A stretch of 64,000 nucleotides of DNA, from positions 13,578,001 through 13,642,000 of the forward strand of contig CM022677.1 of NCBI GenBank assembly GCA_012295275.1. Reading direction: 5' to 3'. A program made the position numbers and the translations under genes. This DNA is from Chrysomallon squamiferum. Taxonomy: Eukaryota; Animalia; Mollusca. Positions 11,030-58,590 of the stretch are shown one piece after another. The notes beneath the pieces are model-generated. The model saw only the letters and a program-made list of their open reading frames with translations. It had not been told where the DNA came from and did no database searches. Each line of letters opens with the position of its first letter. Positions within the stretch are counted from its first letter, which is position 1.

Positions 11030-12300
11030 CAGACATAGTGCCTCAGTTGCAATAATTCGACTCACTCAAAAGGCAGTACATACCACATTATCTAACATAC
11101 TAGACAGAGTGCACTGGATGGACAAAATTGACTCATTGACAGGGCAGTACGTATCACAGTCTCTAATATACTCTACACACAGTGCAATGGATGGAACAAA
11201 TGAAATCACTGACAGGGTAACACATACCAGACAGACTATAAAACACTATGCAGAATGCACTTGCTGGATAAAACTGACTGACACAGAGGCAGTATGTACC
11301 ACAACCTCTAATGTACAGGACACAGTGGACTAGATGGACTCACTGACATACACAACAGCAGTCTTATATAAAACAGCTCTCTTATATAAAACAGCAGTCT
11401 TATATAAAACAGGTCTCTTATATAAAACAGGTATCTTATATAAAACAGCAGTTTTATATAAAACAGGTCTCTTATATAAAACAGCAGTCTTATATAAAAC
11501 AGCGCTCTTATATAAAACAGCTGTCTTATATAAAACAGCAGTCTTATATAAAACAGCTCTCTCATATAAAACAGCTCTCTTATATAAAACAGCAGTCTTA
11601 TATAAAACAGCAGTCTTATATAAAACAGCTCTCTTATATAAAACAGCTCTCTTATATAAAACGGCAGTCTTATATAAAACGGCAGTCTTATATAAAACAG
11701 CTCTCTTATATAAAACGGCAGTCTTATATAAAACAGCTCTCTTATATAAAACGGCAGTCTTATATAAAACAGCAGTCTGATATAAAACAGCAGTCTTATA
11801 TAAAACAGCTCTCTCATATAAAACAGCTCTCTTATATAAAACAGCTCTCTTATATAAAACAGCAGTCTTATATAAAACAGCTCTCTCATATAAAACAGCT
11901 CTCTTATATAAAACAGCAGTCTTATATAAAACAGCTCTCTTATATAAAACAGCTCTCTTATATAAAACAGCTCTCTTATATAAAACAGCAGTCTTATATA
12001 AAACAGCGCTCTTATATAAAACGGCAGTCTTATATAAAACGGCAGTCTTATATAAAACAGCTCTCTTATATAAAACAGCGCTCTTATATAAAACAGCTCT
12101 CTTATATAAAACAGCGCTCTTATATAAAACAGCAGTCTTATATAAGTGAACTGGCTGGAACAGTTGGGCTCGCTGAGATGGTAGTGCGTACCACAACCTG
12201 TAATATACCAGATACAGGGCACTGGATAGAATAAACATACTCACTGACAGGGTAGCACATACCACAGTCTCTACTAGACATCATACACTGGATGAACAGA
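11030..12300 (+). repeat. ~60-bp diverged tandem repeat array interrupted by an 18-bp minisatellite
   Basis: Units like GCACTGGAT..A..AAA.TGACTCACTGACAGGG.AG.ACATACCACAGTCT lie on both sides of the 18-mer block (11030-11350 and 12150-12300). Confidence 0.75.
11354..12145 (+). repeat. 18-bp minisatellite (~44 units; AAACAGCAGTCTTATATA / AAACAGCTCTCTTATATA variants)
   Basis: Direct reading of the sequence. It produces the spurious YKTAVL and FYIRLL ORFs. Confidence 0.98.
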
Positions 12301-14426: not shown

Positions 14427-15899
14427 AAGGGTTTCATAAGCATGAAACATTTATGTTTTATCATGACATATTGTGTTTTAAACACTGGAAGACATTATTT
14501 ACAACATATGCATGCAAATAAACACGTATTTTTGGCAATATTGTATCCAACCTTCTTTTTTTTTAACCATCTTGTTGTGCACATAATTTTTAAACTACAT
14601 GAACAGGTAAAATTTATTTTATCTTTATATGTAATTTCTCCTCTAAATTTGAAGCTTATTTTTTCCATAGTCCAGCTAATATAAAAAGTATGGCCTATAA
14701 AGTGACTATAATATTTATCTTAATCAGGTTTTGTATTAACTATCCTGGAGTTTATTATGGGCAGTGTTTTGAAATTTGTGTCATTTGTTTTGGAAGCTGT
14801 TTCTATGAGAGATTTTACTTCTTGGTTTTAAAGTAGTGGAAGCTTAATAATCAGTTAACATTAATAAAGTCACTACAGAAGAAGTGTTCTTAATAGCACG
14901 TTTGGCTCCAGTTAATTGAGTAATTATTTTAATTTTTTTATTTTAATTTCCTTTTTTGATTTTGTTTTGTGTCATTATATGATGAAACACTACAGGGCTG
15001 ATACTTTGTCTACATCTTAGGTTCAAGAATCTGTAAAGAGTTTTTGAAAGTGATAGATATTTATGGATATTTTTCAATGTTTTATGACCGTAATTCATTG
15101 TATTTAGATGTGTATATTTTAATGAGCTTATGAAGATTTATTTTGTTTTTTTTGTATTTCAGTTATATTTTGAATTGGGCTAAGCCGGTGAAGTTTATTT
15201 TTGCCAAGCAAAGATTTCTTCAAGGTGAAAGTTGCTACTTAGACACATCTAGTGTGTTTTTCTGTAAGTTTGTTTTTAATATTACTGTATGTGCAAAATG
15301 CCTGCATGGTGACTGTTGTATTTTTGTGTTTTTTAATGACAGGTGTTGAATATTCTAACATGGTTCATACTACTTTTCAGCTTTTGCAATAACATTCTGA
15401 AATATCCCCTACTTTTTTGTACAGAGAAAAAACATGTGCAAATATAAATCAGTTTCTTTTAAGAACTATTTCATTATTACATATAAATGCATCATTTATA
15501 TGTAATTAGAGATAATTAATTGAAAACAGTTCATATTTTGTTCAAGATGATTATAAAAAAAACTCAACATGATCAAACCTATAGCACACTGATAATCCTT
15601 AAAGTTATTGTTATTATTATCATTCTTTTTCTGATAGCACAAGATTTCATGCAAATTAGATAAACCATAATACATCTCACAAATTTGTGAATTTGAAAGA
15701 ATTGTAGAAACAGTGAATTAATGAGAAATATGTGGGCATCAGTTTACTGTGGACTGACAGTGTTTGTATGACTAAAGTCACGTACGGACTGTAGTGCTGT
15801 AGTACAGAAAATGATTGTCACAGTTTATTATGTTCAATGAAAATTCTTCATTTTACTCAATTTTTTGAAAGATAAACTAAAGTTTGTATTCTCTCTTTT

Positions 15900-16426
15900 C
15901 AGAATTGTACACGTCAAGAATGCCTATGTCACTCTTTGTCACTCTGGCAGTAATTTTTTCAGTGGATTTAATCTTCTTTGTCTTAGACTTTTCTATACTT
16001 TCACACCAGTACTTTTTATTCCTACAAATCAAGAAATCCTTCAAACATGTTTTTTTTTTGCAGTGTCATTAATGATCTTCCCTCTTTTCACCTTCACATT
16101 CTTGCACATCTTTTTCAATTCCACCATTACACATTTTCTGCCACCTTTCTGTTTACTTTTGTGTTCATGTTACCTCTACTTCACTGTTCCCTCTGCTTTG
16201 GTTCATTGAGCCATATCTTCTCCTGGTGGTTTGTGGATAATCTCACGCAGGCCTTCATTAAAACCCAGTCTCCTCTTTCATATGTGTTACTTGTCTTTGA
16301 ACATCTCGTATGGATAGATATCTTTAGGTGCAAGGAATGCAGCCTGATAGGGTCCATAGAAGAAAATTGGATATTTTGGAGTTTTTACTGATGGTGGAGG
16401 TCATCAATCCTTGCCAGCCAGTGTGA
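15900..16426 (-). pseudogene. Inverted 5' part of a LEDGF/HDGF-related (PWWP-domain) processed pseudogene
   Basis: The minus strand 16426->16227 reads [63 protein letters not shown]. This matches the HDGF/LEDGF PWWP pattern [43 protein letters not shown]. It has stops and a frameshift and no introns. The left boundary is approximate. Confidence 0.88.
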
Positions 16427-21741: not shown

Positions 21742-22440
21742 AGAGTGATGCCTCCAACGAGTGCTCCAACTTATGAGTTTTCTGAATTATGAGCAGCAGC
21801 CTGGTCGATTTTTTGCTTTTAGTTGAAAGCCAAAATTCGAGTTACGAGTGAGCTTCAGATACACCGCCGCTAGTTGGCGCAACGAACAACACAACATCCG
21901 ACCAAAATCCCTTGTCTCACTCGTTTACTTCACATGGTTAATTCACCATGGAAACATCTCTGTTGTCTTGTGCTCGCGTTTTGTGCAGTATTTTGCCAAA
22001 TTTACGTTGTTCCTAAGAAAATGAGTGCAAAGGACAGTGCTGAGAACAAGACGCGAATGATGTCCGTTGAATTAAAACATGAAATCACAGAAAAACATGA
22101 GTAAGGCGTGCATGTAGTCAACATGGCTAGGCAGTACGAGCGTAGTAACATACTCAAGCAGGAGTTGATAAAGGCTGTAACTCCAGTGTTAAAATAATTG
22201 CTAAGCTGCAGACCTCTGTCCATGTAAAGATGGAGAAACCCTAACCCTGTACACTTTACAAAAAACAATTTATTTCTTTACATTCTCTTTTATTTTGTTT
22301 TTTCTTATTTAAGAAAATGAAATGGGGTGGTTTTGGGAGGGCTGGCTCGGATTAATGGTATTTCAATTAATTTCAGTTGGGAAAATTGATTTGATATACG
22401 AGAAAATTGAGTTACAAGCTCAGTCACAGAACAAATTAGC
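21742..22440 (+). mobile_element. Internally deleted Tigger/pogo-like DNA transposon
   Basis: ~22012-22180 translates as PKKMSAKDSAENKTRMMSVELKHEITEKHE*GVHVVNMARQYERS, a CENP-B/psq-type N-terminal HTH typical of Tigger transposases. Subterminal TTACGAG/ATACGAG motifs occur at both ends. Confidence 0.75.
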
Positions 22441-22444
22441 TGTT

Positions 22445-23190
22445 GTCAAACACGTAATTTAATTACCTTAGAATGATCGGCCACCTGCCAAACACAACAC
22501 CGTCTGACAGCCTCCTGTCGGAATATGGCATCCAACCACAGAAATACAGAAGAAAGCTGCAGCTACTGAAATACAACCTGAAAATACACACCCTGAACAC
22601 AGACCACCCCGTCAAGGATCTGGTCCCCGACCAACAAAGAATAGGGCAACCCTTTAAGTCTACTTCTATTGAATTTCCCGACAACAGCCAGCGATATCGA
22701 AAGGGAAACAGGAATTGGGGAAATGCCACTGCCAGCAATAAACACACCTTTCCTAATCAAGACAGAAACAGACAAAACAGAGTTACCATCCTTCATAAAA
22801 GCCATATTTCTAGCAGCAGCAAACCACCACTACAAACAACACAGGAACATCTACGCCAACGGATCCAAAACCCCAGACAACGGGCGAGTAGGATTCGCCT
22901 TCATAGCCCAAGATCACAAAAACAAACCCACATGCATACAATTCGACCGTATCACAAATCACCTTTCAGCATGCACGGCCGAATTCCAGCAGACCAGACC
23001 TACTCAGCAAAATACAACATCTACACGAGGACATACAACACAACGACAAACAACTAATCATCAAGTGGCTCCCAGCACGTCAGCATCATCAGCAACGAAC
23101 TTGCAGACCATTACGCCAAAGAGTCACTCAGCATCAAAAAGAAGACAAAACTATACGTACTTACTTTCAGACCATACTAACCTGGTTATC
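22445..23190 (+). mobile_element. Non-LTR retrotransposon fragment with RNase H domain
   Basis: NIYANGSKTPDNGRVGFAF (IYTDGSK-like), SACTAE and frameshifted LIIKWLPA..IISNELADHYAK (WxPxHxGxxGNExAD-like). An A-run follows at ~23197. Confidence 0.8.
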
Positions 23191-24176
23191 AGATTTAAAA
23201 AAAAAAAAAAAAAAAAAGTACTAATAAATGTAAATAAGTTAACAAAGTTCATGTTCTTATTCTTCACAACAGCTTGCTCTAATCAGCACGTTAATTTTTG
23301 TCAAGGTTCAAGGTTCAAGGTAATTAAATTACGTGCTTGACAACAGCTAACTCGGAATAGCACGTTAATTTTTTTCAATTTTAATTTTCCTGCAATCGTA
23401 ACGAGAATCCCTTTCTCTTTCCTTTCACAAAAACTCTTTCTGCAACAGACACGCCTGCTGACCTGTCAGAAAGCGTGCCTCTCGTAGACGTTCTTCACAA
23501 CAGCTAGCTCTGATTAGACGTTCCATTTTTCCAGTTTCCAGTAATTAAAGAGCGAAGTGAAAGGAGCGAAGGAAACGGTCAAGTCGATACTTATGTCAGG
23601 CAGAGAAAAACCAATGTTTTTGAATGACATTGTCTTTACTGAGGAGTATGGTAAGCAACTGTCTATTCTTTTTTTGATAGGGTGTAATGTGTCAGTAACA
23701 TTTATAAAATTATACCTCCGTGCAGATTCTTATTTTGTCTTGGTTCCCCGAATGACAAATCAAAATTAATTAAACATATGTTTTACGAGTGTATAATGTA
23801 TTATTATCAAGTCACCTGTACATAATAATTAAATAATTAACGTGAACTTTAACCGGTGTTGTGTTTATTTCTCTACTCGATAGATAGACTTATTGATTTA
23901 TATAGATTGCTGTCAGTTTAGTTTTAGATTCCTTGTTAGTGGCCATTAAAGCCCTTGTTACCCTCGACTGAGCTTTAATAAAACATCCAAGATGTTTAAA
24001 GGTTTGAGCCCCGTGACACATTGTTTCAGTTTTTTTTTTATTAATTATTATTTTATCATTTTAATTAGTATTATTGTACTTGTAGTTTTTATCGTTAATG
24101 TCTTTATGTCAGATATTATTACTGTCGAGATTATAAACAAAGAAACAATTATCAATAGATAAATAGATAGATAGAC

Positions 24177-33624: not shown

Positions 33625-33824
33625 NNNNNNNNNNNNNNNNNNNNNNNNNNNNNNNNNNNNNNNNNNNNNNNNNNNNNNNNNNNNNNNNNNNNNNNNNNNN
33701 NNNNNNNNNNNNNNNNNNNNNNNNNNNNNNNNNNNNNNNNNNNNNNNNNNNNNNNNNNNNNNNNNNNNNNNNNNNNNNNNNNNNNNNNNNNNNNNNNNNN
33801 NNNNNNNNNNNNNNNNNNNNNNNN
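33625..33824. other. Assembly gap (200 N)
   Basis: Run of N bases. Confidence 1.
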
Positions 33825-33974
33825 TGACTGAAGTGTTTGTATAAGACTAAAGTCATGTACAGACTGCAGTGCTGTAGTACAGAAAATGATTGTCACAGTT
33901 TATTATGTTCAATGAAATTTCTTCATTTTACTCAATCTTTTGAAAGATAAACTAAAGTTTGTATTCTCTCTTTT

Positions 33975-34498
33975 CAGAATTGTACACGTCAAGAATGCCT
34001 ATGTCACTCTTTGTCGCTCTGGCAGTATTTTTTTCAGTGGATTTAATATTCTTTGTCTTAGACTTTTCTATACTTTCACACCAGTACTTTTTATTCCTCC
34101 AAATGAAGAAATCCTTCAAACATCTTTTTTTAGCAGTGTCATTAATGATCTTCCCTCTTTTCACCTTCATATTCTTGCACATCTTTTTCGATTCCACCAT
34201 TACACGTTTTCTGCCTCCTTTCTGTTTACTTTTGTGTTCATGTTACCTCTACTTCACTGTTCCCTCTGCTTTGGTTCATTGAGCCATACCTTCTCCTGGT
34301 GGTTTGTGGATAATCTCACACAGGCCTTCATTAAAACCCAGTCTCCTCTTTCATTTGTGGTACTTGTCTTTGAACATCTCGTGTGGATAGATATCTTTAG
34401 TGCAAGGAATGCAGCCTGATAGGGTCCATAGAAGAAAATTGGATATTTTGGAGTTTTTACTGACGGTGGAGGTCATCAATCCTTGCCAGCCAGTGTGA
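33975..34498 (-). pseudogene. Second copy of the inverted PWWP retrocopy segment
   Basis: Minus strand reads [56 protein letters not shown]. Confidence 0.86.
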
Positions 34499-42033: not shown

Positions 42034-42296
42034 CAGTGGTACCTTGACTTACAAGTGTTTTTTGTTGTTGTTTTAATGTTTTTTTCAGTCTTGTCGTTTC
42101 CTCAATGAAGGTACCTGCGAGTCCTGCTGTCCCCAGCAGTATACATTGACCTTGACCTTGATAAAATGGTGCTTATTCCAAAAGCAAAGTTCATATTAGG
42201 GTCTCTGTGTGTGAGGAGATGTCCAGGTAAAAAACAAAGAGTGAAAATAGTAAAAATGTATTAATTATAAAAAATAACAACAACATAATCTGTTCA

Positions 42297-42623
42297 AAAA
42301 AGCCATATTTCCAGCAGCAGCAAACAACCACTATAAACAACACACGTACATCCAAAAACCCAGACAACAGGAGAGTAGGATTCGCCTTCATAGTCCAAGA
42401 TCACACAAACAAACCCACATGCATACAATTCGGCCGTATCACAAATCACCTTTCAGCATGCACGGCCGAATTCCAGCAGACCAGACCTACTCAGCAGAAT
42501 ACAACATCTACACGAGGACATACAACACAACAACAAACAACTAATCATCAAGTGGCTCCCAGCACATGTCAGCATCATCGGCAACGAACTTGCCGACCAT
42601 TACGCTAAAGAGTCACTCAGCAT
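42297..42623 (+). mobile_element. Non-LTR RNase H fragment (paralog of 22797-23133), truncated at the viral junction
   Basis: Encodes KQLIIKWLPAHVSIIGNELADHYAKESLS. Homology to the first copy stops at GAGTCACTCAGCAT. Confidence 0.85.
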
Positions 42624-42659: not shown

Positions 42660-43025
42660 ATGTTCACAGCTTTGGGTATAATTGCTACTGAAATCATTGA
42701 ATTTGCGTTTGATACATCAGTGGAACTTGCTACATCAGCTATTACAGATTCTACCGCTCCAGCTATAGCCGAAATTGTCGGAGCTGACAGTGTATATCTA
42801 CCTCAAGCGACTGCTATCGGACAAAGTATAGTTGAATCTTCTGTAGAAGGCACTGCTAGCTATACTAAAACTCAAATAAACGACGCTTTGGATCAATTCA
42901 CTGATTTTGTGAATTCAAAAGATACAGCAGTAGATAATAACGTTTAATCTGAAGAACGAGAGGAATTGGAAACTGAAGAGGACGAATACGTATCATATAT
43001 GCATACTACTAGTCCAATTTCATGA
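42660..43025 (+). pseudogene. Viral small upstream ORF (~121 aa), genome 1; one premature stop at 42945
   Basis: MFTALGIIATEIIEFAFDTSVELATSAI...V*SEEREELETEEDEYVSYMHTTSPIS*. It is homologous to 48152-48515, and its TGA overlaps the capsid ATG (ATGA). Confidence 0.8.
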
Positions 43026-44664
43026 ATAAAGGGAAACGTATATTAAACAAGAAGGACGTTACCAGACTTTGGGCTATAGCTAAAGCTAAAGCATTTGATA
43101 TATTATCAGAGATAAATGTGCCGGTGGATCAGCGGTTACAAATTCGGCGTCAATATCCAAATTTACAGATTCCAAATCAAGATTTCTATTCGGCAATACA
43201 AAATATTCGGAACGAATATAACCATATTGAAGATCAAGACGAAGAGGACCCTTTTAATACGCCTATATACCCAGAAGACGAACAAGCATTAAAAGCATCA
43301 GAACAACAAGGCATGAAACGACAAAACATCAAACCTGGAGGAGGATCTAGCTCCAAAGTTCCTAATAATAATCAACTATCTACGAGGATATCACAAGATT
43401 TATTGGATCAATATAATTCCAAAGGAACGTATGTTCAACCTCAAGAGTCCGTAATGGAACCTGATTCTATCATGAACGAAGAGGTAACTGATACAGGTGG
43501 AAGTGAAGCCGTAGAAGGTGCTCCTATGGCCTCTGCTACAGGAAATAACGTTTTATACCAAGGATTTGGAGGTACAACGTCTGGAGCTAATCATTTAAAC
43601 GAACATTCACTAGTGAGATTAATTTCTCTAAACAAAGAAAACCTAGTATGTCAGTTATAGATAATGCAACAGATGCTTCAGCATGGAAAAATGCAATAGG
43701 TGATCCAAATGTGTGAATTTACATTCAATCATGGTGGTCACATTATACCTTATTGGTATAAAGCAGCTAGTACGAAGGCAGACGATTGGAATTTACCTGA
43801 TGAGGTTGTAGGCTATAAAATTAAAAAATTCGGATTTAATATAAATAATATGATAATACATGTTCCAAACGAAGTACCAGTAATGGCACCTCCAAATGCA
43901 CGAGTTTGGACATTTACAGATATTTATAATGATTATGGATTACCTGATAAACATTTGGACCTATCTCATAATAATCGATTAAAAGATGAAGAATGTATGG
44001 ACTGCTATCACTACCTATTTTAACCATCAGTACAGGAATGTACACTATTCAGCTTGTTATCAAAATAAAGCTGGTAAAGATTTAGGAGCACGATCGATGG
44101 CAGATGATGCTAGCACCAAACTAGGTAAAAGCGGTATATCTAGCAATGATTTAGATAATCCAAATGTGAACACGTGCATGGACGGTAAACACCGTCGTAC
44201 GTATCAGTGCAATAGACCTCCTATGTTCCTAATAGGTTTATACCCTGATGTAGAGAAAACTAGCAACGGAGCTACATTATTCTTTAATTACCATGCTAAC
44301 ATACAAATAACTTATTATAGCGAGGTGGAGTTTTTAGTCAGAACGGCAATGTGTCCAAAATACATACCTATAGGTTTGGGTGGATGTCCGTCAGGTAATG
44401 GCAGGACTCATTTTTAAATTGAACGATACTACAACTGTAGGAAATAAAGACAATGTGAAACATACAGAACAAGATCAATTCTTAGATGAAACTGTAAAAC
44501 AATATAAAGATCGAATCGAAAAAACATGGAAAATGAGAATATATGCCCCTATATGGGACAATTGGAATAAACGTAAAGCCAGACGACGATTTATCTGGCC
44601 AGTACACGGTGCTTATGGAGATAGAAGTGTACCTATTACAGGAGATTGGTCTTATCCAGTATAA
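43022..44664 (+). pseudogene. Parvovirus-like capsid (VP) gene, genome 1, frameshifted and internally deleted
   Basis: ORF fragments 43022, 43700, 43986 and 44380 are colinear with 48512-50479. Motifs include GGHIIPYWY, WTFTDIYNDYGLP, RPPMFLIG..QITYYSEVEF (reminiscent of parvoviral jelly-roll strands) and a basic C-terminal NKRKARRR. AATAAA follows at 44671. Confidence 0.75.
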
Positions 44665-44754: not shown

Positions 44755-44806
44755 AACATTTATTACGTCATGTTTGTGACGTCATGTTCATAACGTTATA
44801 AATAAA
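44755..44806 (+). promoter_or_regulatory. Internal NS1 promoter, genome 1
   Basis: GTCACGTA, TTACGTCA and TGACGTCA (CRE/ATF-like), followed by TATAAATA at 44797. The same arrangement occurs at 50551-50608. Confidence 0.7.
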
Positions 44807-44912: not shown

Positions 44913-47012
44913 ATGGATAGATATGTTGAAACCGTTGGAGATAGTTATTATAGTGTGGTTATAGGACACACTAGTTACGACATGGTACACCTGAAATTTT
45001 TGGTACCCAGATCTCTAGCTAAAGACAAAGAAGGTAAATACGTTTACGCACCAGGCAAGAATTATATTAAAAGCTACCAGATGGATCAGCAAGACATATT
45101 AGACAAGACTGTGGATCATTGGGCCACGCCCAATTACGAATATCTGGCAAAAGGACAGGACAGAGTCGTGACAGAATTGAAATCCTTTATACGAAACAAG
45201 AACTGGAAGATACTATTAGTATATCATCAAAAAGATTGTCAAGTAGAAAGTAATTATCCTACTTATGGTTCTCACGTTCACATTATATGGAAAACTAACA
45301 TGAAGACCCCATCACAAGATAGACAATACAGACGACTCCATCGTGCAATTTTAAATGAAAAGGGATACATCAGGATTCGTAAATTGAAGGATCCACAATG
45401 TACATCTGTAGAAAACTACATGATGTATTTGATGAACGATTCAGAGAAGATGTATTTAGGAACAAATGACGAAAAGATGCTACACATTTGGAACGAAACA
45501 GAAAAATGTTCCAACGAGGAGGAAGAAGACTTAATGAACGTTCTGTTAGATTTTTTTGACGATCAACCAATAAAAGATAACAGTACAATTATTTCCGATA
45601 TCAAAGAGCCTGTGAGAAAGGAAGACGTCAATTCCAATAAGAGTACAACATCATCTCATGTCGTGAATCACGGCAAAGAAACATCTTCCGCAGCAGCTAA
45701 GATGGAGGAAGTGATGTTAGAAACTATACCTGAAGACAAAAACAGGATCAACTAGTTCCATCTCATCTGATAACGAACAAATCAGCTGATACATTTGACT
45801 TCTTTTATAAACTAATAGTTAAACATCCAGACGTGAACAAACTGAATTTTTTAATCAGCAAATATGACAGTAACAGTAACGAGTTTAAAGCTATATGTAG
45901 CTAACACATCAGGAGAAAAGCTATTCAAGGCTGCTAGATCGAAATACATGGAAGAGGAAGCAGACAAGAACGCATACGACCAGATTCTGTCATTATCGGA
46001 AAACATCGATAATTACATGACACCAGATAACAGTTTAAAAGTGTTCAACACCTGGTGTGTAGAACAATGCATTCCTGAACGATGGTTGTATGTGTTAATT
46101 GTTTCTGTTTTGAAAGGAAAAGGAAAAAAGAAAGTAGGATTGTACTTACAAGGAGAATCCGATTCCGGTAAAACAATGATATCGAGCAGTATGTTCGAAT
46201 GTCTTAACTGCGCCGGAAAAATAGCCAAGGATAATGTCCCCTGGCAGATGCTAGGTAACAAGAAGATTGTGCTAGGTGAAGAGATTTGTATCACGCAAAG
46301 TAATATAGACAAGTACAAAGATCTACTAAGCGGAAGCAAAGCCACTTGTGAGCGTAAAGGAACTACACCTACCTACTGTCGAGCTAATCTATGCATGATC
46401 AACTCTAACAACCCGTTTGGTCAGATCAGTATAATGAAAACCCGACTCTATTTTCTACAGGATTTAAAGAAAAGTGATACATTGAAGCAAGCCTATAATC
46501 TGATACATCCAGGATTATTCAAAATCGGTTTCAAACCTACAGAGGACGAAATGATGATAGCTTTGGAAAATGACAGGGAATATTTTAGACTAAAACATAA
46601 TAACAATATAAATGACAATACAGTCGACGGCAGGAATAGTTATTTCAGAGATAACTTTGATGACAGTCAGACAGTCAGCGAGCCTACAACACATATACTT
46701 TGCAATTCATCACCTAACAAAAGAAAATATATCGAGATATCGTCAGACGATGACGAACCAGAACAGGAAAATAAGTATTGTGCTTCGCAGGATCTCTTCA
46801 TACAGAGTCAGAAACGATTCAAAGGTGAATCTGATGAAAACAAAGGTAGTAAACGTGAATTAGAAGAAGAGGATGAAGTGGTGTCTCCCACACCGCCTTC
46901 AAATAACAAAACATTAAAGATGTACATACCGGAATCTCAACCGTTCTACGACGACTTCACAGAAACAATTCAAGAGACACAAATGGACATATTTAAACGT
47001 TATAAACAATAA
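44913..47012 (+). pseudogene. NS1: Parvoviral NS1/Rep (HUH endonuclease + SF3 helicase), genome 1, disrupted around 45750-45900
   Basis: HUH motif GSHVHIIW; Tyr motif ENYMMYLMN; Walker A GESDSGKT; Walker B KIVLGEE; B' YKDLLSGSKATCERKG; motif C CMINSNN. AATAAA at and just after the stop. Confidence 0.93.
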
Positions 47013-47314
47013 AAATAAACGTAATAATAAACATTAAAAGACATCAGTGCTGATTTATTGTTCTTACGTTGATATTAATGTTCATTAAAAGTTATTTCTT
47101 GAAATAAAATTATTTATTAAAATTAATTACCTTCGTTTAGTTAATTATTTAAATAAACTATTACTATCGTCTGCAATATAACGGAAATGACGTCATATAA
47201 AATAACTTCATTTAAAGAAACGGATATGACGTCATATCCATTTAAATTATATACTCTCTTCAAAATAAAAAATAGGGGTCGGGGGTGTGAAAATGCAAGA
47301 TATGATAGATTATC

Positions 47315-47758
47315 AACTCTACTCTTGTTATAGTAAAAAAAAAAAGTTCCTCACTACATGGCTTTTTAGCTTTTTGGCTTTTTAACCAAATGTACTTTTA
47401 ACCCGAAGGTGATAATGTTCCTTCGGGCGAAGCCAAAACCCGAAGGATCATAAGTTAAAAAAACAAAGTTCCCCATGATTGGCTTTTGGCTTTCGGCTTT
47501 TTAACCAAATGTACTTTTAACCCGAAGGTGATAATGTTCCTTCGAGCGAAGCCAAAACCCGAAGGATCATAAGTTAAAAAAACAAAGTTCCCCATGATTG
47601 GCTTTTGGCTTTTGGCTTTTCGACCAAATGTACTTTAATTTATGCTCCTTCGGGCGAAGCCTAAGCACCTTCGGGTTAAAAGTACTTTTGGTCAAAAAGC
47701 CAAAAGTCAGTAATGAAGATCTTTGTTTTTTTTACAAATCACAAGAGTTAGGTTGACA
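47315..47758. repeat. Right terminus of genome 1: two tandem half-hairpins (~120-bp period) plus one imperfect full hairpin
   Basis: AAAGTTCC..GGCTTTT..CCAAATGTACTTTTAACCCGAAGG.. units start near 47343, 47465 and 47584. The last one folds back (..AAAAGTACTTTTGGTCAAAAAGCCAAAAG). Confidence 0.88.
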
Positions 47759-48001
47759 ATTTCTACCTAACTCTTGTTTACTGTTAAAAAAACAAAGTCC
47801 CTCATTAACTGGATTTCTGGCTTTTTAGCTTTTTGACCACAATGTACTTTTAGCCCGAAGGTGATAACGTTCCTTCGGGCGTAGCCAGAACCCTTCGGAT
47901 CATAAGCTAAAAGTACATTGTGGTCAAAAAGCTAAAAAGCCAGAAATCCAGTTAATGAGGGACTTTGTTTTTTTAACAGTAAACAAGAGTTAGGTAGAAA
48001 T
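47759..48001. repeat. Left terminal hairpin of genome 2 (perfect 96-bp inverted arms, 51-nt structured loop)
   Basis: 47759-47854 is the exact reverse complement of 47906-48001. The loop holds CCGAAGG..CCTTCGG and GGC-GTA-GCC mini-stems. Confidence 0.95.
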
Positions 48002-48054
48002 CTATCAGGTCATGATTTAAACACCCAAACATTGCTTTTTTTTTTTTTTTAAGA

Positions 48055-48125
48055 GTATTACGTCATATCCGTACTGTCACGTGATATTATGTATATATTA
48101 CAATACATTTTACAATTATATCATT
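48055..48125 (+). promoter_or_regulatory. Left-end viral promoter, genome 2
   Basis: TTACGTCA (CRE-like), GTCACGTGA (E-box), TATATATT at ~48093 and TCATT (initiator-like) upstream of ATG 48152. Confidence 0.55.
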
Positions 48126-48151
48126 TGTGATCAAGTCATTCACTCGATAGG

Positions 48152-48515
48152 ATGTTCACAGCTTTAGGAATTATAGCAACAGAACTAATTGAATACGCCT
48201 TTGATGCTTCAGTGGAATTAGCTACATCTGCTATAATAGAATCTACAGCACCTGCTATTACTGATAGTAGGTGCTGACAGTTTATACCTAGAACCAGCTA
48301 CAGCTATTGGACAGTCGATAGTGGAATCGTCAGTTGAAGGTATTTCTACATTTACTAAGAATCAAATACAAGAAGCATTAAATCAATTTGGTGATTTAGT
48401 TAAATCGAGTGGAAAGGACATTGATACTAACGTTTCTAAGTCTGAACGAGACGACTTAGAACAGGAAGAGGACGAGTACGTAAGTTACGTATATAGAAAC
48501 AGTCCAGTTTCATGA
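48152..48515 (+). pseudogene. Viral small upstream ORF, genome 2 (one frameshift near 48265)
   Basis: MFTALGIIATELIEYAFDASVELATSAIIESTAPAI../..ESSVEGISTFTKNQIQEALNQFGDLV..EEDEYVSYVYRNSPVS*. Confidence 0.8.
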
Positions 48516-50479
48516 ATAAAGGAAAACATCTTCTGAATAAGAAGGAAGTGACACGACTTTGGGCAATAGCTAAATCTAAAGCATAGTCCATATTAGCAGA
48601 CTTAAACGTGCCGGTTGATGAGCGCCAAGATAGGTGGTTACAAATACGACGTCATTATCCAAATTTACAAATTCCTAATCAAAGTTTCTATCAGGCAATA
48701 TAAGATCTTCGGGAAAACCATTACAATCCTGAGAATTCGGACGAAGAAGACCCTTTCAATACACCTTTATACCCAGAAGACGAACAAATACAGGGTAGAC
48801 CACAGTCACAACCAAAACAAGCTATGAAGAGACAAAGAACTGAACCAGCAGGTGGATCAAGTTCGAAAGTTCCTAATAACAATCAATTATCAGATAGAAT
48901 ATCTCAAGATGTATTAGAACAATCTAATTCTAAAGGAACTTACCTTCAACCACAAGAGTCTGTAATGGAGCCTCATTCAATAATGAATGAAGAGGTGGCA
49001 GATACAGGTGGAAGTGAAGCTGTTGAAGGTGCTCCGATGGCCTCAGCTACAGGTAACAACGTTTTGTACCAAGGATTTGGAGGCACCACTAAAGCAGCTA
49101 ATCCACAATATATATAACTATTAAAAAGACATTCAAAAGAACATTTACAAGTGCAATAAATTTTACTAAGACTAGGAAAGCTACCATGAAAATATTAGAT
49201 AATGATACAGAAAATATTAATTGGAAAAAGGCTATAGGTGATCCTAATGTTTGTGAATTAACATTTAATCATGGAGGACATATTATACCGTATTGGTATA
49301 AGCAAGCTAGCACTAAACCTGATGATTGGAATTTACCAGATGAATTTGTTGGATATAAGATAAAAAAAATTGGATTTAATATAAATAATATGATAATACA
49401 TGTTTTAAATAATACTAAATCAGATCCAAACGAAGTACCTGTAATGGCACCTCCAAACGCACGCGTTTGGACGTTTACAGATATTTACAATGATTATGGA
49501 TTACCAGAAAAAAATCTAGATTTGTCACATAATAATAACTTTAAAGACGAAGAATGTATGGATACTACATCTCAAAGAAGCATACTGGTTCAACCAGATC
49601 GTAAACTATATGTACCTAGTGATATAGGTAAGCAATTGTTAAATAATGCTTGGAATGGTAATGGTGTATTATATCAAGCAGAAACACCTAATTATATTTA
49701 TGACATGAAAAAACATGATGGATACCGTGAAACAGTCATAAGTGCTGGAGGATTTGGATTGGATTATACTTGTAAAGATTCCCCATTAGTTATATTTCCA
49801 GGTGAATCTACTCAGACAATTAATTTCACACAAATGTCTGGGCTAACAAAAAAAGATAGATATCAATGTAGCAATGAAAATAAAAACAATCTAGAAGTGT
49901 GGCCAACACATGACATTTCAGTAACTAATGTATCAACACATCCCATGGGAACTGCAGTAGCTACATATTTTAATCATCAATACAGAAAGGTACATTATAC
50001 AGCTTGTTTCCAAAGCAATCCATCTAAAGTTTTGGGTGCTCAATCAATGGTAGATGATGGAGGTACTAAAATGGCTAAAGGTGGTGTAATGTCAAATGAT
50101 GCAAACGATCCGAACGTTGATACATGTACGGATGGTTCGCATGGACGAACGTTTCACTGTAACAGACCTAAGTATATACCAATAGGTTTAGGTGGATGTC
50201 CTGGCCCTATGCAAGGACTTACATTTAAAGATAACGACACAAAACCCATGGGAAATAAAGACAACGTAAAACATACTGAACAAGATCAGTTTTTAGATGA
50301 AAATATAAAACAATATAAAGAACGAATTCAAAAAACATGGACAATGAGAGTGTATGCCCCTGTATGGGATAATTGGAATAAACGTAAGGCTAGACGTCGA
50401 TTATTATGTACACGGTGCATATGGTGATAGAACGGTACCAATCACTGGTAATAGTACTGATTGGCCTTATCCAATATAA
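48512..50479 (+). pseudogene. Parvovirus-like capsid (VP) gene, genome 2
   Basis: Starts MNKGKHLLNKKEVTRLWAIAK. Includes fragment 48824-49117 and the 413-aa ORF 49186-50427, and ends ..WPYPI* at 50479 after a frameshift. Confidence 0.78.
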
Positions 50480-50550: not shown

Positions 50551-50608
50551 TGTCACGTACACATTATTACGTCACTTTCATGACGTCATGTTCAATTTGT
50601 TATAAATA
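50551..50608 (+). promoter_or_regulatory. Internal NS1 promoter, genome 2
   Basis: GTCACGTA, TTACGTCA and TGACGTCA, then TATAAATA at 50601. Confidence 0.7.
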
Positions 50609-50694
50609 AAGACGTTCGTTTTGAGAATTTGTCACTTGTTCGTTGTTCTTTCAACATTGACAAACACTTACAATCACCAATCGGATATAGAAGT

Positions 50695-52858
50695 ATGGAT
50701 AGATTATATCGAGTTGCCTGACGATCGCTATTATAGTGTAGTAATTGGACATTCATTGTACGATATGGTACACCCGAAGTACCTAGTTCCGAGATGCTTA
50801 GCGAAAGACAAAGACGGGAAATGTGTCTATGCTCAGGGAAATAATTTTATCAAGAGTTTCCAAATGGATCCACAGGATTTATTAGATAAACCTGTGGATC
50901 ACTGGGCCACGCCTAGTCACGAGTACCTGGCACGAGGACAAGACAGAGTGATAACAGAACTGAAGTCATTCTTGAGGAATAAGAATTGGAATAAGAATCA
51001 CCAAAAAGATTGCGAGGTGGATCAATCGTACCCAAGTTATGGATCGCACGTGCACATCATATGGCGAAACAACATGAAAACTCCGTCTCAAGATAGACAG
51101 TACAGACGTTTGCATAGAGCCATGTTAAACGAAAAGGGATATATAAAGATCAGAAAAGTAAAGCAGCCACAATCTACTTCGATAGAAAACTACATGTGTT
51201 ACCTTATGAATGATAACGAGAAGATGTACCTCGGTACTAATGATGACAGAATGCTGAAAATTGTGGATAAACGTTGAAAAACGTATTCATGAGGATAATG
51301 CAGAGATTTTAAATATTCTGAGTGATTTCTTTGACAACGATAACGTGTCAGTTGACGTAACTACGTCTAACATTAAAGAACCTGTACGAAAACAGAAAAT
51401 AAATATAAAAACAGAGGAAGTAATTCCACATACGTCAATCGCTCATGGTGCAGGAACTAGCTCTATTGATGCTAAGATTGAGAGTGACTTACTGAATGCC
51501 ATGATGGAAAAAAATACTGATAATACGAATACAACGAATAACGATAAGATACCAACACACCTATTGACAAATAAGTCTGCAGAAACACTAGACTTTTTTT
51601 ACAATTTAATTGTGAAATATCCGGATGTCACTAAACTTAACATGTTAATAAGCAAGTTCGATACATCATCGAATGAATTCAAAGCATTATGCAACTCCGT
51701 TGCCAACACATCGGGAGATAAACTGTTCAAAGCAGCTCGTTCGAAGTATTTAGAAGAGCAATCAGACAAGAACGCCTTCGAACAGATTAACGATTTCAGT
51801 GATAAATAGATCATTACATGACTCCAGAGGACAGCTTAAAAATCTTTAATAGTTGGTGTATTGAACAAGAGATACCCGAACGATGGCTATACTGTCTAAT
51901 AGTTGCACTACTTAAAGGAAAGGGAAAGAAAAAGGTTGGGTTGTACTTTCAAGGTGAATCGGACTCTGGAAAGACAATGTTATCAAGTTCCATGTTTGAG
52001 TGTCTGTCATGCGCAGGCAAGATTGCCAAGGATAACTTCCCATGGCAGATGCTCGGCAATAAAAAAGTAGTATTAGGTGAGGAAATTTCAATTAACTAGA
52101 CAAACATAGATAAGTATAAGGATTTGTTAAGTGGAAGCAAGGCAACGTGTGAGAGAAAAGGGACCAAGCCATCGTATTGTAGAGCCAATATCTGCATGTT
52201 AAATTCCAATAACAAATTTGGTGATGGACTAACAACGTCTCAGATAAGCATAATGAAGACTAGATTGTATTTAATACAAAATCTCAAGAAAAGTGAAGTA
52301 CTAAAACATTCCTATAACTTGATCCATCCAAAATTGTTTACTGTTGCATTTGAGCCATCAGATGATGAGATCAACATAGCTTTAGAAAATGATAGAGATT
52401 ATTTTATTCACAAAGGAAACAATAACATTAATGATAACACATTTGACGGAAGGAACATGTATTTTCATGATAATTTCGATGACAGCCAGTCAGTGTTAGG
52501 AACTCAAGACCCTATGATCAATTGCTTGCAAGAAGACAAAATAGAGTATATAACCATATCCAGTGACGAGGATGAGGAACATGCAAACAATTCATACAAT
52601 CCATCACAGGATCTATTTATTACATCACAAAAGGTTAATGACAGTCAAGATACACATTCAAAAAGAATTAAACGAAAACGTGATGAAGAAATTGATCCTA
52701 ATTATATAACAGTTGGCGAAGAACCAAACGAACCAGAAGAAAAACATTTCAAATTTTATGTACCAGAAACACAACCATTCCATGGAATGTTTACTCAAAC
52801 GATACTTGGAACACAGATGGATACATTCAATAAATTCAAAGCCGAAAATGACTCATAA
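50695..52858 (+). pseudogene. NS1: Parvoviral NS1/Rep, genome 2, split by stops and frameshifts
   Basis: Fragments 50621, 51261, 51818 and 52124 contain GSHVHIIW, ENYMCYLMN, GESDSGKT, DNFPWQ, KVVLGEE and CMLNSNN. Confidence 0.93.
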
Positions 52859-53083
52859 ATTTACAAACATTATGTGATAATTAATTAATGTTATATTGTT
52901 AGTAAATAAATATGTTATATTATTAATAAATATTTGTATTAAAAATATATTAAATAATTACTTAATTAAAATAAAATATGTTATAAACTTATTTATGTTT
53001 TTGTTATTTATTAACAAAAAATATTTTTAAAATATTTACCAATAACGTCTGCAATTAATAACGAATATGACGTCATATATATT

Positions 53084-53396
53084 AAAACAAAGTTCCCCAT
53101 GATTGGCTTTTGGCTTTTGGCTTTTTGACCAAATGTACTTTAATTTATGCTCCTTCGGGCGAAGCCTAAGCACCTTCGGGTTAAAAGTACTTTTGGTCAA
53201 AAAGCCAAAAGCCAGTAATGAAGATCTTTGTTTTTTTTTTACAAATCACAAGAGTTAGGTTGACAATATATCACGTCTTGTCTTTCACTCCCCCCACCCT
53301 ATATACTTTTTTTTATATTTTGAGATGACGTTATGTCACGTGACTATGCACCTTCGGGTGTTAAAGTACATTTGGTCAAAAAGCCAAAAGCCAGTC
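53084..53396. repeat. Right terminal hairpin of genome 2, plus inverted ITR sequence and a final hairpin fragment
   Basis: 53084-53267 is nearly identical to ~47578-47759. 53205-53322 resembles the reverse complement of 47260-47367. 53348-53396 repeats a hairpin half. Confidence 0.88.
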
Positions 53397-56026
53397 TGTT
53401 CAACTCTGTTATTTAAATAGGTCAACTGATTCCATTTTATGTTTTAACGATGTTTTATAGGGTACATTTTTACCAGAACTCTTGGTATTTATTTATTTTA
53501 AGTTTTGATTAGATTATTAAGTACAGTATTCTTTCAAAACAAAATTATTTAAAAATATAAAATTAAATTTAAAAAAAAATATCTCCCTTAAACCAAACAT
53601 TTTTTAATACGAAGTCTGTACTTTTATTTTAAGTCAGTAATAAAGGATTTCTGACACTAAATCATTTTAAAAAAGTAACTTCTTTTACCACAGACTTGCC
53701 TGTACTTGGTGCTGTGTCTGGTCCAAACGTTCAGTATACTGAATAAATCTGATCACATCTTTCATGAACAACATTGTAACTTTGAATCTAAATTCAGTAT
53801 CACAATATTATAAATTCTTCAATAAGAACAGTCCATGATTCACACAAGTAATGTTTTTAAAATGTTATTTTATCCAGTTATTCAGTTCTTTATATTTACT
53901 GTGGAGATGTTTTCTTCTTTTATTAGTTCATTCAGTTCCTTATAACTTAGAGGCAAACTTGTTTTTAGATTCAGTTTACATCAGTTCTTGTTAATAGCTT
54001 TCTGTGGTGACTGAAATATAAAATAGTACATTCAAACATTTTAACAAGACCCACTATAATTTTATATTTTATCATTTGAATCTGAAGAAATGTTTTCAAC
54101 CAATAATAAGTACAGTTAATTTAACTGAAATAAAATAGAGTTTAATTATATTTATTTAAACAGTCTTGTTGGACCTCTATTTTTCATTGTATATATATAT
54201 TTTTTTTTTTTCTTTCTTAAAGCAGTAACTTCCATTTTACTTTTAATTAAGTACATAAATTAATATATTTTATAAAAATTGACAACAAGTAAGATCAGTA
54301 ATATTTATCTGTTAATTTTTGAACATACATTTTCTAAAGTACAGTCCTTTTCTCCCAACTGCTGTATCAATGTCACGTTTTGTCTTTTTCTTTGCATCTA
54401 CAGATACCATTATTTAAAAAAAGAAAATTATATATAATAATAATATTAAAATATTCTCATATGGCATTAAATGATTTATATTTTACAGTTTATAAAATCT
54501 AGTTGTAAACTGAATTACCTTTCCATTATACTCAGCATTTGGTTACAAAACATTGAACTCATCTGAATTTCTGAGTTTGTACAAATTTCTTTTAACACCA
54601 CGAACTGGAGAAGTGATTGTTCTTCACTGAATTGTACTACAAGCCTGGTCATGTGGTCATCCTTGGCCTGATAGAACTTGTTGTGGTCAGCAAGGGCTTG
54701 TTTATCCTGTAAAAGTAGTAAACAAAACTTATCCTGATAACCCTAATAAATAAAATTGATTTACTTAAAAACTATAACATTTATCATTGGAAATGATAGC
54801 AAATTTTTATTTAAAAGTTACTTGAAGTATTAAAAATTACAAATTATTTAGTCATAATAAATACATTTTACATCTTATATCATCATTAAGATATCTCTTG
54901 AAAATTATCTGCTTGTCTGTTATTTTTTTAAAAATACAGAAGTTTATAATTTTTAGTGTTCATAACCAGCAAGTTTCTTCAGTTTTGTGTCAAACTTTAT
55001 AATTAACAAGATTGTTCACCATAAATAAACAAAATAATATTTTGGATGCCTTTTTTTCTTGGATTTTAATAATAAAGAGTTAATTTTTTTATTTTTTTTT
55101 TTTAATTTCCAAAACATAGGATGTTGTATATAAGATTTTTGTTAATAATAACTTTTCTGTTTTACTTTTTTTCTTATGCAATATTAGTTTAATTATATCT
55201 TTGAAAAACAGCAGTTTCAAGCCTTTTGTCTGTAGTTTCAAGCCTTTTGTCTGCCCGGACAACATGGGGACAATGTGAGAATTCTGTCACATGAACTGAC
55301 ATGATCAACATCGTGGACAACATGGACTGCAGTGGAAGTTCAGTCATCTTAAATATAACACAGAAGTACATGAGTTATTAAAACTTATAACATACATATA
55401 TATGATTAATAGTTTGTTAAATTTTTAATTTATCAGTATTTAAATTGATAAATGTTTTAATTACAACTAGTTTTAATAAATAAAAATCTGAAATGATCCC
55501 AGAGCTCACTCTATCCTTAAAACATTACCCTGTTTCCAATTCCACACTGAGTTCCATTCATAATTTATCTTGTATTGTGTCTGTGCCGCGTCTTAAACCA
55601 TCATTAATTTCTACAGATTTTGGAATAATTTTTTTAAAGAAATAAACAGTTTTATAAACTTTCAAATTCTAAATGAAAATTAGGATTATGTAATATCAGG
55701 TTTTAATTTTTGATCTTTTTTTTAAACATTTACAGTGTTTAAAGTTAAATTCTGTTAATTTATGTATAATAAAAATAATAATAAATAAATAATTAGTAAA
55801 ATAATAGGTCTGTTTCAATAGCTATTATATCGGTGAGAAACGTGATTTATAAATATTTTTTTAGCTGCTTTTCCTAATTATTTTCTTTCCTTATTTTATT
55901 TTATTTTATTTTATTTTCTAGTCAAATTGGTTATCAAGTATTTTATTTCACAGTGGTTAATCACTGGAATAAAGTGAGAGAGAAAACTGTAAACTATGAA
56001 TTAAACTGACTGCTGTGTTTTCTGTA

Positions 56027-56220: not shown

Positions 56221-56599
56221 CTGGCTCCATTATAAAAGAAATTGAAATGTGTCTTCCTGTCCATGTGTACACAAGTAATTAAACATTTCAGACAGAAAAT
56301 CAGTGAATCTAGAAAACACAACAGATTTAGATAATTAAACCATTCAACACAATCTGCAAATACTTCTGTTTTTCAGGTCAAAAGGATATTTTCTAAGCCA
56401 TTCTAAGACAGTATTTATTAATTATAATTGTATTTATGTTTGTAGAGAGGAAGGAATGTGATGATATTTCTTCTAGATAAGATGAACAGCAAACAGTCTC
56501 TTGATGTGTTTGAGTTGATGTTGAAGAACTGGACATTCATCGCCAACAAATGAAGTAAGAACTTTTTAATGTTACAAACAAAATAAATACTAGAAAACA

Positions 56600-58590
56600 T
56601 AAAGTCATGTTTAAGACATTTTCTTTGCCTCTTGAAGATGGCTGCAGCACTGTGAAATCCATGGCTACAATCTCATGAGGTCTAATAACAATACGATGTC
56701 CCAAAGGTAGTTTCAGTTTGAGTTGTGGCAGTTCTGCCACCATACACCTTTCACACTCTTTACACCACTTGTTCCACATCTTTGTGCACTGCAAGCCAGC
56801 AACAACTTCTTCTAATAAGACTCATTCTTCTTTCAAAACCCTGGTGTCCTGTCTGATTGTGTAAACTCTACAGAACTTTCTTCTTCATCATTCCTGGTAG
56901 TACAGTCTGCTTCATTCTTCCCAAGTTGGGGTCCTTTACTTTTCTGTAAAGTGCTTTGTTTTCACGAAATAATCTGTCCCACTGCCAGATTACTGTGAAG
57001 AAACCTGATTCTTCTAATCTTCTCTCAGCTCTGCATGGTAGCCATGTAATACAGCAATCTCCTTATTAACTTGTCTTTTGCCTGCATCACTGCTAGTTCT
57101 GGTAAAGCTGGGAGATGATGTTGTGGCTTCCATAGTTTCATTAAATTGTTCCACTGCAACAGTTTATTGTGTGTTTTCTTCCACCACAATTTTATAACTT
57201 GTTTCATTGTCTGTGGAACTTCTGTACTACTAGCAGTATCTCTAAAGCAGCTTCCACTGAAGTAGACATCATTCCATGAAATTTCTTCCTGGATAGACCA
57301 TCAGTATTCTTATTGTGTTGAATGATATTTCACATCAAAATCAAATTCTACCAGCTGAGACCCCCATGTTTCTTCCACTGCCAATTTCAGACCAACAAGC
57401 TCTAACTTCATGGAACTGTAATTATTCATGTTTCTCTCAGTGGGTCTCAAGCTCTTTCTAGCAAATGCAATTTTTTTCCTTTGCCCATTCTGCTCCTGTG
57501 ACAGTACTGTTCCCACAACTCTCAACCCAAGTACCCTTTAACAGTGCTTGATATTTGATTTTTGAGTAACTAAGAATCCTTTAACATATCATCTGAAGTA
57601 ACTGGCAAACTGCAAAAATGACACCAGGCCCTTTGGTGTTTTTGGAACCTACCATTCAAGAACAGCCTTTATTTTGTCTGGATCTGTAACTACCCCATCT
57701 CTAGACATCACGTCCTAGATATTTCACTTCTTTCTTAAGGAAACAGCGTTTGCTTGGTTTTAGTTTGAGCCCATGCTGTTTTAAAATGTTAAATACCTCT
57801 TCTAATTTATCTATGCACACAAAAAAAAAGAACACTGAAATATCTGCTCTGTAAAGCAATGCTGCATAAGTCTTTGAAATGTGGCCGGTGCTCCTGATAA
57901 ACCAAACAGCATATGATTGTATTTAAACAAACCCATTGGAGTGATGAATGCAGTTTTGTCTTTGTTTTTATCCTCAACTGCAATTTGGTTGTATTCACTG
58001 GCCATATCCATATAGTGAACCAGTTTGCTCTGTGCAAAGCATCTAATGACTTCTATTGTAGGTAGTGGAAAGCAGTCTTTCCTAGTTTTAGCATTCAGCC
58101 ACCTGTAGTCCACACACAGATGAATTGTGTTGTCTGTTTTTCTCACTATAACAATAGGAGATGAATATGGGCTGTGGCTGGGTCAAATTGCATCTTGTTT
58201 TATAAGTTTCTTGATCAGCTTCTTGACTTCCTGATACTGACTGTGTGAAATTCTTCTGTATGGTTGTGACACTGGTATGTTATCAGTTGTGCATATGTGA
58301 TATTTTACAGAGTCAGTAAACCCCAAATCAAGGTTATCTTTAGCAAATACATCAGTTAAATATTCTCTTTAACATCAGAGTATTTGTTCAGTATTCTTTT
58401 TAACTTTTTCTTCTGCTCATCAGAAATATCAACTTGAAATCTATCAAACTCTGTGTATACTAACTGTAATCTGCTCCATGCAAACTTCTTCTCCTTGTCC
58501 TTTATTGACTGAGGCTCTTCTACTTCTACCACTGATGACAAAACACCCACTTTAGTTCTTGGTTTCAACCCTATTTTACAACACAAATCT
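56600..58590 (-). mobile_element. Degenerate Ty3/Gypsy LTR retrotransposon pol (RT-RNase H-integrase)
   Basis: RT: LCVDYRWLNAKTRKDCFPLP and KTAFITPMGLFKY..FGLSGAPATFQRLM. RNase H: GTVLSQEQNG..IAFARKSLRPTERN..YSSMKLEL. Integrase: CKECERC..PHEIVAMDF. Domain order is RT-RH-INT; many stops; no LTRs seen. Confidence 0.93.

Follow-up and report, generated by a model that had tools for sequence, protein, structure and literature searches.

The palindrome at positions 47759 to 48001 of the window (the whole stretch of 64,000 nucleotides analysed here) probably derives from a young endogenous parvovirus, whose left terminus it would represent in extended form; the viral initiator protein NS1 may have linked it to an older terminus of viral origin. 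It lies within an array of about 11 kb in which two broken parvovirus-like genomes, units 1 and 2, stand head-to-tail on one strand, each with a likely capsid gene followed by an NS1 gene, and it closes, between the two units, a run of hairpin-derived modules that starts at 47309. From left to right the array comprises a retroelement piece, unit 1, a right inner ITR, modules A, B, C and D (D being the palindrome), an inner ITR with promoter, unit 2, a truncated inner ITR, module C', another inner ITR and a partial arm ending at 53395. Its features are the following:

42289 to 42297 and again 53395 to 53403, plus strand: TCTGTTCAA, a possible 9-nt target-site duplication around the whole composite
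42293 to 42623, plus strand: left edge of the array, a 331-nt internal piece of a retroelement with RNase H (RNase_H E 9e-5, short of the curated cut-off)
42660 to 43025, plus strand: small upstream ORF of unit 1, with a premature stop at 42945
43022 to 44664, plus strand: likely capsid gene of unit 1, broken by several frameshifts and, near 44000, by the loss of about 390 nt
44913 to 47012, plus strand: NS1 gene of unit 1, broken by frameshifts within about 45740 to 45900
47150 to 47308, plus strand: right inner ITR of unit 1
47309 to 47572, plus strand: modules A and B, arm-plus-loop halves with a 119-nt period, joined through GTTAAAA microhomology
47573 to 47760, plus strand: module C, an imperfect chimeric hairpin whose left arm is B-like and whose right arm is of another type
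47759 to 47760, no strand assigned: C-D junction, TGATA(G/T)A-TT read toward the loop (the hyphen marks the cut), predicted nick (terminal resolution) site
47759 to 48001, no strand assigned: hairpin D, 96-nt perfect arms and a 51-nt spacer; unit 2 likely has its left terminus here, in extended (duplex) form
48002 to 48150, plus strand: inner ITR and left promoter region of unit 2, an inverted homolog of sequence inside the right end of unit 1
48152 to 48515, plus strand: small upstream ORF of unit 2, about 120 aa, frameshifted once near 48263 and overlapping the capsid start with its stop
48512 to 50479, plus strand: likely capsid gene of unit 2, broken by stops at 48584 and 48701, frameshifts near 49110 and 50408 and an in-frame deletion near 50170
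50693 to 52858, plus strand: NS1 gene of unit 2 (putative HUH nuclease, and SF3 helicase), broken by frameshifts near 51260 and 51805 and a stop at 52097, with a short in-frame deletion near 50995
53040 to 53084, plus strand: right inner ITR of unit 2, shortened and joined to C' within an A-rich stretch
53084 to 53267, plus strand: module C', a direct copy of C with 2 substitutions and one 2-nt poly-T difference
53268 to 53395, plus strand: inner ITR of the third terminus type and partial arm (module E), the right edge of the array

The flanks of this region are microsatellite-rich and hold retroelement fragments, which points to a eukaryotic host chromosome. The retroelement fragment at the left edge has a second copy, 90% identical, at 22792-23134; that copy sits at 22436-23350 between inverted repeats (perfect 14- and 19-nt arms, 850-890 nt apart), and the whole resembles a small terminal-inverted-repeat element carrying a retroelement piece. 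Elsewhere in the window, broken ORF pieces on the minus strand at 56400-58200 resemble, judging from their motifs, the reverse transcriptase and integrase of a Gypsy-type element. At 11347-12231 both strands have open frames that run over a short-period tandem repeat and translate as repeated SYIKQ units, and an element of about 500 nt is present in two copies, at 15841-16388 and 33916-34416.

As the first-pass annotation had described, the palindrome consists of two 96-nt arms (47759-47854 and 47906-48001) that are 100% complementary around a 51-nt spacer. It is the longest perfect non-microsatellite inverted repeat in the window among those with arms less than 2 kb apart, the runner-up having 33 nt, and the best preserved of the several hairpin modules of the array; its arms contain no CpG. 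Folding it as ssDNA, a check proposed at the same time, gives -121.5 kcal/mol (z -26), a value reached by none of 200 shuffles. The loop had been credited with branched mini-stems: three CCGAAGG/CCTTCGG motifs and a GCGTAGC mini-stem are indeed present, but at the computed energy minimum the main stem extends further, with bulges, and no clean T or Y branch forms. GCGAAGC is found in four loops (47427, 47546, 47654 and 53159) and GCGTAGC in hairpin D (47879), and both retain a GNA triloop, a feature of an unusually stable DNA mini-hairpin. The hairpin had also been called terminal, which fits its likely origin as the viral terminus of unit 2 but not its present place, internal to the insertion and between two viral units. 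An Rfam search of the whole window returned no match.

Its parvoviral nature, likewise proposed from the letters, gains support from the Pfam family Parvo_NS1, from language-model features of the capsid, from the ITR-like flanks and from the occurrence of both loop orientations in sequencing runs. An NS1 with an SF3 helicase, a criterion for Parvoviridae, is indicated by Parvo_NS1 matches of 29.9 bits in unit 1, against a cut-off of 20, and of 20.0 bits for a fragment of unit 2, along with weak PDB matches to AAV Rep (E 0.005). The HUH motif (HVH/HLH) and the Walker motifs are kept in both units and in relatives of about 700 aa; the N-terminal HUH nuclease domain, a further trait of the family, matched no Pfam profile. 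Hairpin D and C' span about 5.5 kb, with inner ITRs inverted around a capsid-NS1 unit, so that terminal palindromes flank a unit within the 4-6 kb expected. Module A is likely the right terminus of unit 1, whose left terminus is absent. Clusters of the motifs TGACGT and CACGTG precede both NS1 genes and recur in every inner ITR (44765-44790, 47188-47235, 48060-48084, 50569-50590, 53068-53076 and 53326-53342); by resemblance, we presume these clusters to be promoter or origin factor sites.

The upstream gene of each unit likely encodes the capsid. A natural 690-aa relative (P0015, residues 150-690) was compared with the ESM Atlas, where the top matches were parvoviral capsids (0.94), with 208 of 256 features shared, PF00740 among the families, and agreement in 8 of the 10 best family matches. 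Pfam and PDB sequence searches with the capsid gave nothing relevant, the PDB matches for the alignment being at chance level (E >=0.15), and two AlphaFold models, with pLDDT of 27 and 30, were too low for use; since the identification comes from one language-model search to which Pfam, PDB and folds added nothing, it is likely rather than proven. Relatives of the capsid gene were found only on a handful of ENA contigs. In both units the capsid gene is also preceded by a small ORF of about 120 aa whose stop overlaps the capsid ATG and whose protein sequence is conserved; the piece from unit 1 had no match in Pfam. In both units the likely capsid gene precedes NS1 on the plus strand with no terminus sequence between the genes, a layout that departs from the usual parvoviral one (NS cassette 5' of VP, or ambisense), although the latter is no formal criterion. 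A genome unit of the form NS1-hairpin-capsid was rejected, as the ITR flanks point inward to capsid-NS1 units.

The two units are 74% identical over 4253 aligned nt. Over ten natural blocks, pooled pN is 0.135 and pS 0.72, corresponding to a pooled dN of 0.15 against a dS of about 2.4 (dN/dS about 0.06), with the synonymous sites of NS1 saturated. Such values indicate that the units diverged as working viruses under purifying selection, that is, as two different viruses: identity of about 74% with dN/dS near 0.06 is the mark of separate viral lineages and not of a host duplication, and tandem duplication of one element within the host was rejected on the dN/dS between the units. Unit 1 carries larger deletions than unit 2, which hints at an older age.

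In a helicase tree, units 1 and 2 are sisters (99/92) inside a clade of 39 of the 54 rows (100/99); these rows, kept from 56 and drawn from the best matches, include no classified virus. Ten further clusters were looked up and two proved to be named, one a pot worm parvo-like virus outside the clade and the other a group of Elysia proteins inside it, among them KAK3777758.1, KAK3765289.1 and KAK3765280.1 of Elysia crispata. The close locus tags of these three copies suggest an array in that gastropod. As the one named cluster within the clade is from a sea slug, the host of units 1 and 2 is likely an invertebrate. The clade, which appears to be unnamed, comprises 36 protein clusters at E up to 1e-30; in public assemblies (P0001-P0062) several NS1 and capsid copies are found per long contig, and scans of viral contigs and metagenome contigs returned no related locus. 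Proteins P0028-P0062 and P0187-P0189 are parvo-like NS1 of this clade, many of them with 900-1100 aa on Logan contigs of up to 7.2 kb. The array differs from many members of the NS1 clade, which have 900-1100 aa and lie on short Logan contigs of about 3-7 kb, in that its NS1 has about 720 aa.

The genes next to the hairpin are decayed, as noted at first pass, with stops and frameshifts in both units. The 4489 coding nt of unit 2 contain 5 frameshifts, 3 in-frame stops and no fewer than 2 in-frame deletions. As 4.0-5.5% of substitutions make stops, the stop-codon clock gives a decay of 1.2-1.7% for this unit; between C and C', 2 substitutions in 2 x 182 nt amount to 0.55%, assuming an identical start. 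On these clocks the predictive chance of finding neither substitution nor indel in the 192 nt of the arms is 0.08 (stop codons), 0.15 (pooled) or 0.25 (C/C'). The stop-codon clock alone, as a plug-in estimate before indels, yields 0.04-0.10 and makes perfect arms somewhat unlikely. Rolling-hairpin replication makes one arm from the other, according to the available text of one account (PMC12297876), and the arms would on that ground have been identical at the start; this copying is likely why they are perfect. The first-pass annotation had offered either intrastrand conversion or recent integration as the explanation. Under a local decay near 1%, a chance of 8-25% leaves the paradox of the perfect arms weak, so that a young insertion suffices and conversion is not needed. 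We regard it as highly improbable that the insertion is older and that its arms were kept identical in the host chromosome by intrastrand conversion, through hairpin extrusion and repair. In its favour, the coding sequence of unit 2 has at least 8 lesions over about 4.5 kb while the 192 nt of arm have none, and the stop-codon clock gives no more than about 8%; the pooled (15%) and C/C' (25%) clocks speak against it, as does the neighbouring hairpin C, imperfect in both copies, even if its complementarity of about 80% may fall below a conversion threshold.

The boundary between C and D bears on how unit 2 came to its place. Three terminus types align at the junction bond as TGATA(G/T)ATT, read toward the loop; this one homologous bond is where C stops and the palindrome starts, nothing being lost or gained if both were cut between A and T, and C' runs across this boundary into inner ITR exactly where C is cut. 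Hairpin D and unit 2 are thus flanked by a 98%-identical direct repeat of 184 nt (C and C') of the resident terminus, and the insertion has one exact join, C-D, and one ragged join at its other end. GGCTTTT, a candidate initiator-binding repeat near the putative nick site, has 17 of its 20 window matches inside terminus modules. A single junction underlies the predicted nick site, and its match between the termini came to attention post hoc.

These features could be accounted for by a sequence of four steps. NS1 would nick the resident terminus at the C-D bond and stay on the 5' end; the free 3' end would copy about 184 nt of the resident hairpin, giving C'; the nascent strand would then switch template to the incoming genome and copy it to its natural end through hairpin D; and the new end would finally be joined to the 5' end held by NS1. 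Nick, copying of C, template switch and final joining would together produce all four features, with direct repeats running to the boundary and one exact and one ragged join. Judging from this geometry, we give NS1 nicking of the resident terminus with partial target duplication a probability just short of even. The incoming genome may have been inserted in the chromosome or, ahead of capture, in an episomal concatemer. A model of AAV2 Rep-mediated integration at AAVS1 was reportedly put forward by Henckaerts in 2009. For AAV, the accessible parts of the literature describe Rep nicking of the terminal resolution site and an induced partial target duplication (PMC2761290, PMC2900306), as well as integrations that mostly lie far from the nick site (PMC2900306), so precise joins are no rule even there.

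Alternatively, host repair may have strung the extended replicative forms of co-infecting viruses together, end to end, as a mixed episomal concatemer; a single capture at a chromosome break would then have brought it in along with the retroelement fragment, C and C' being two copies of an abundant terminus. We think this rather unlikely. The points in its favour are these: if two natural ends were joined bluntly, the junction would show the same absence of loss; modules A, B, C and E are chimeric pieces that recur, with microhomology at their joins; the possible 9-nt duplication surrounds the composite as a whole; and endogenous densoviruses with head-to-tail concatemers are known, as the consulted portion of one report describes (PMC6880638). 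C-type termini are common in the sequencing runs, so C and C' could each have come separately from a module that is abundant, and need not be a duplication. A shared 9-mer occurs in 0.17% of 200,000 random pairs of 20-nt windows, the TCTGTTCAA repeat having been noticed post hoc, and no single repeat elsewhere in the window matches both host flanks of the composite. On the other hand, one capture would require the same chimeric hairpin on both sides of unit 2 in direct orientation, and a C' that continues into inner ITR exactly where C is cut, and the hint of an older unit 1 in its larger deletions sits poorly with it. Blunt joining in a concatemer explains the exact join as well as NS1 nicking does, but the duplication less well.

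A fold-back artefact of sequencing or assembly had been named at first pass as what would refute the reading of the palindrome. Seven of the eight listed runs, from three studies, hold some of the stretch, the best DNA runs containing 0.70, 0.55, 0.48 and 0.42 of its words and the RNA run X5 0.10. Contigs from four runs (107, 48, 40 and 85) were compared on 47200-48020 only. The A-B join is crossed without difference by contigs in X1 (47403-47489) and X4 (47431-47489), the loop and both arms of module C lie on one X2 contig (47614-47728), and a D-related loop with arm on both sides is carried, with 5-8 differences, by contigs in X2, X3 and X4. In X1 and X2, loose ends at 47402 continue into the loop in inverted orientation, a flip/flop signature; others support the continuation of C' into inner ITR (X1 and X2) and the right join of unit 2 (X2). 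A single X1 contig among the pieces listed starts at 47759 and has unrelated letters past that point, which is what a natural end would produce. The termini have higher summed contig depths than the inner end of unit 1, depth here being no copy number. The terminus architecture is thus real in short reads, with related hairpins in both loop orientations, but as relatives rather than as this exact copy: the exact loop of hairpin D is absent from all four runs compared, every contig in all four carries at 47895 a letter other than that of the window, and the C-D join is not among the contig pieces listed (32 of 292).

These reads bear on a further possibility, that the palindrome is real but owes its perfection to an assembly in which polishing or graph collapse equalised slightly different arms. 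The many similar termini and the loop missing from four of four runs are in keeping with it, and the assembly is a scaffolded one, given the gap of 200 N at 33625-33824. Against it, related loops with an arm on either side are spanned by short-read contigs of two studies (for example X4 47836-47937 and X2 47853-47932), a fold-back from C would have copied the arm of C whereas the left arm of D is of another type (69 of 82 identical), and the palindrome ends at a homologous boundary and continues into ITR-like sequence. We consider equalised arms very unlikely, and a long-read fold-back of the whole palindrome much less likely still.

If the reading of the junction as an NS1-made join is true, the locus would be a natural, inherited record of initiator-driven parvovirus integration, which is known mostly from AAV in cell culture; the nick site would be predicted to the base, and multi-copy clusters of several relatives would be explained. 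A broader and more doubtful proposal is that a lineage with the capsid gene before NS1 homes into its own fossils, its NS1 nicking resident endogenous termini and inserting divergent genomes with a short target duplication, so that head-to-tail mixed arrays would be built in invertebrate germlines through insertions datable by their duplications. A capsid-first layout would, moreover, widen the known parvoviral genome plans. In the open-access literature, as far as its accessible text extends, no report was found of a capsid-first single-strand parvoviral layout, of that order in mollusc parvoviral elements in particular, or of a mixed-virus concatemer with a nick-site join. Endogenous densoviruses are already known to have perfect ITRs and to form concatemers, and the hairpin alone is ordinary; the less usual features are the 184-nt direct repeat flanking the hairpin and unit 2, and the zero-loss join at a homologous bond.

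Among the closest known systems are the endogenous densoviruses of Echinococcus multilocularis (Herz and Brehm 2019), which in the available text of that work (PMC6880638) are likewise multi-copy, with head-to-tail concatemers, frameshifted genes and 100% identical ITR stems of 95-96 nt. They differ in that VP lies downstream of NS1, NS1 has 431 aa and the loop 37 nt, whereas in the array the likely capsid gene is upstream, NS1 has about 720 aa, and the tandem is made up of two different viruses whose synonymous sites are saturated. With AAV2 Rep at AAVS1 the array would share an HUH/SF3 initiator, a nick at a terminal resolution site and a partial target duplication beside the insert, as described in the accessible parts of two papers (PMC2761290, PMC2900306). 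Unlike that system, the putative target is a resident viral terminus and not a host site, the host is likely an invertebrate, the event is inherited, and the nick is deduced from sequence alone. Homotelomeric parvoviruses have in common with the array terminal palindromes, an invertible loop, an inward ITR extension and NS and VP cassettes; the genomes described in the consulted part of the source (PMC12297876) have NS on the left and VP on the right, or the two on opposite strands, whereas here both are on one strand with the likely capsid gene first. Finally, the lineage of Swazi bat megaparvovirus resembles the array in its ORFs upstream of NS1, its likely ITRs and its complete endogenous invertebrate copies, but in that virus, as far as the available text goes (PMC13426907), only a PLA2-bearing ORF and one of unknown nature precede NS1 and the main capsid gene follows it, while in both units of the array the likely capsid gene comes first.
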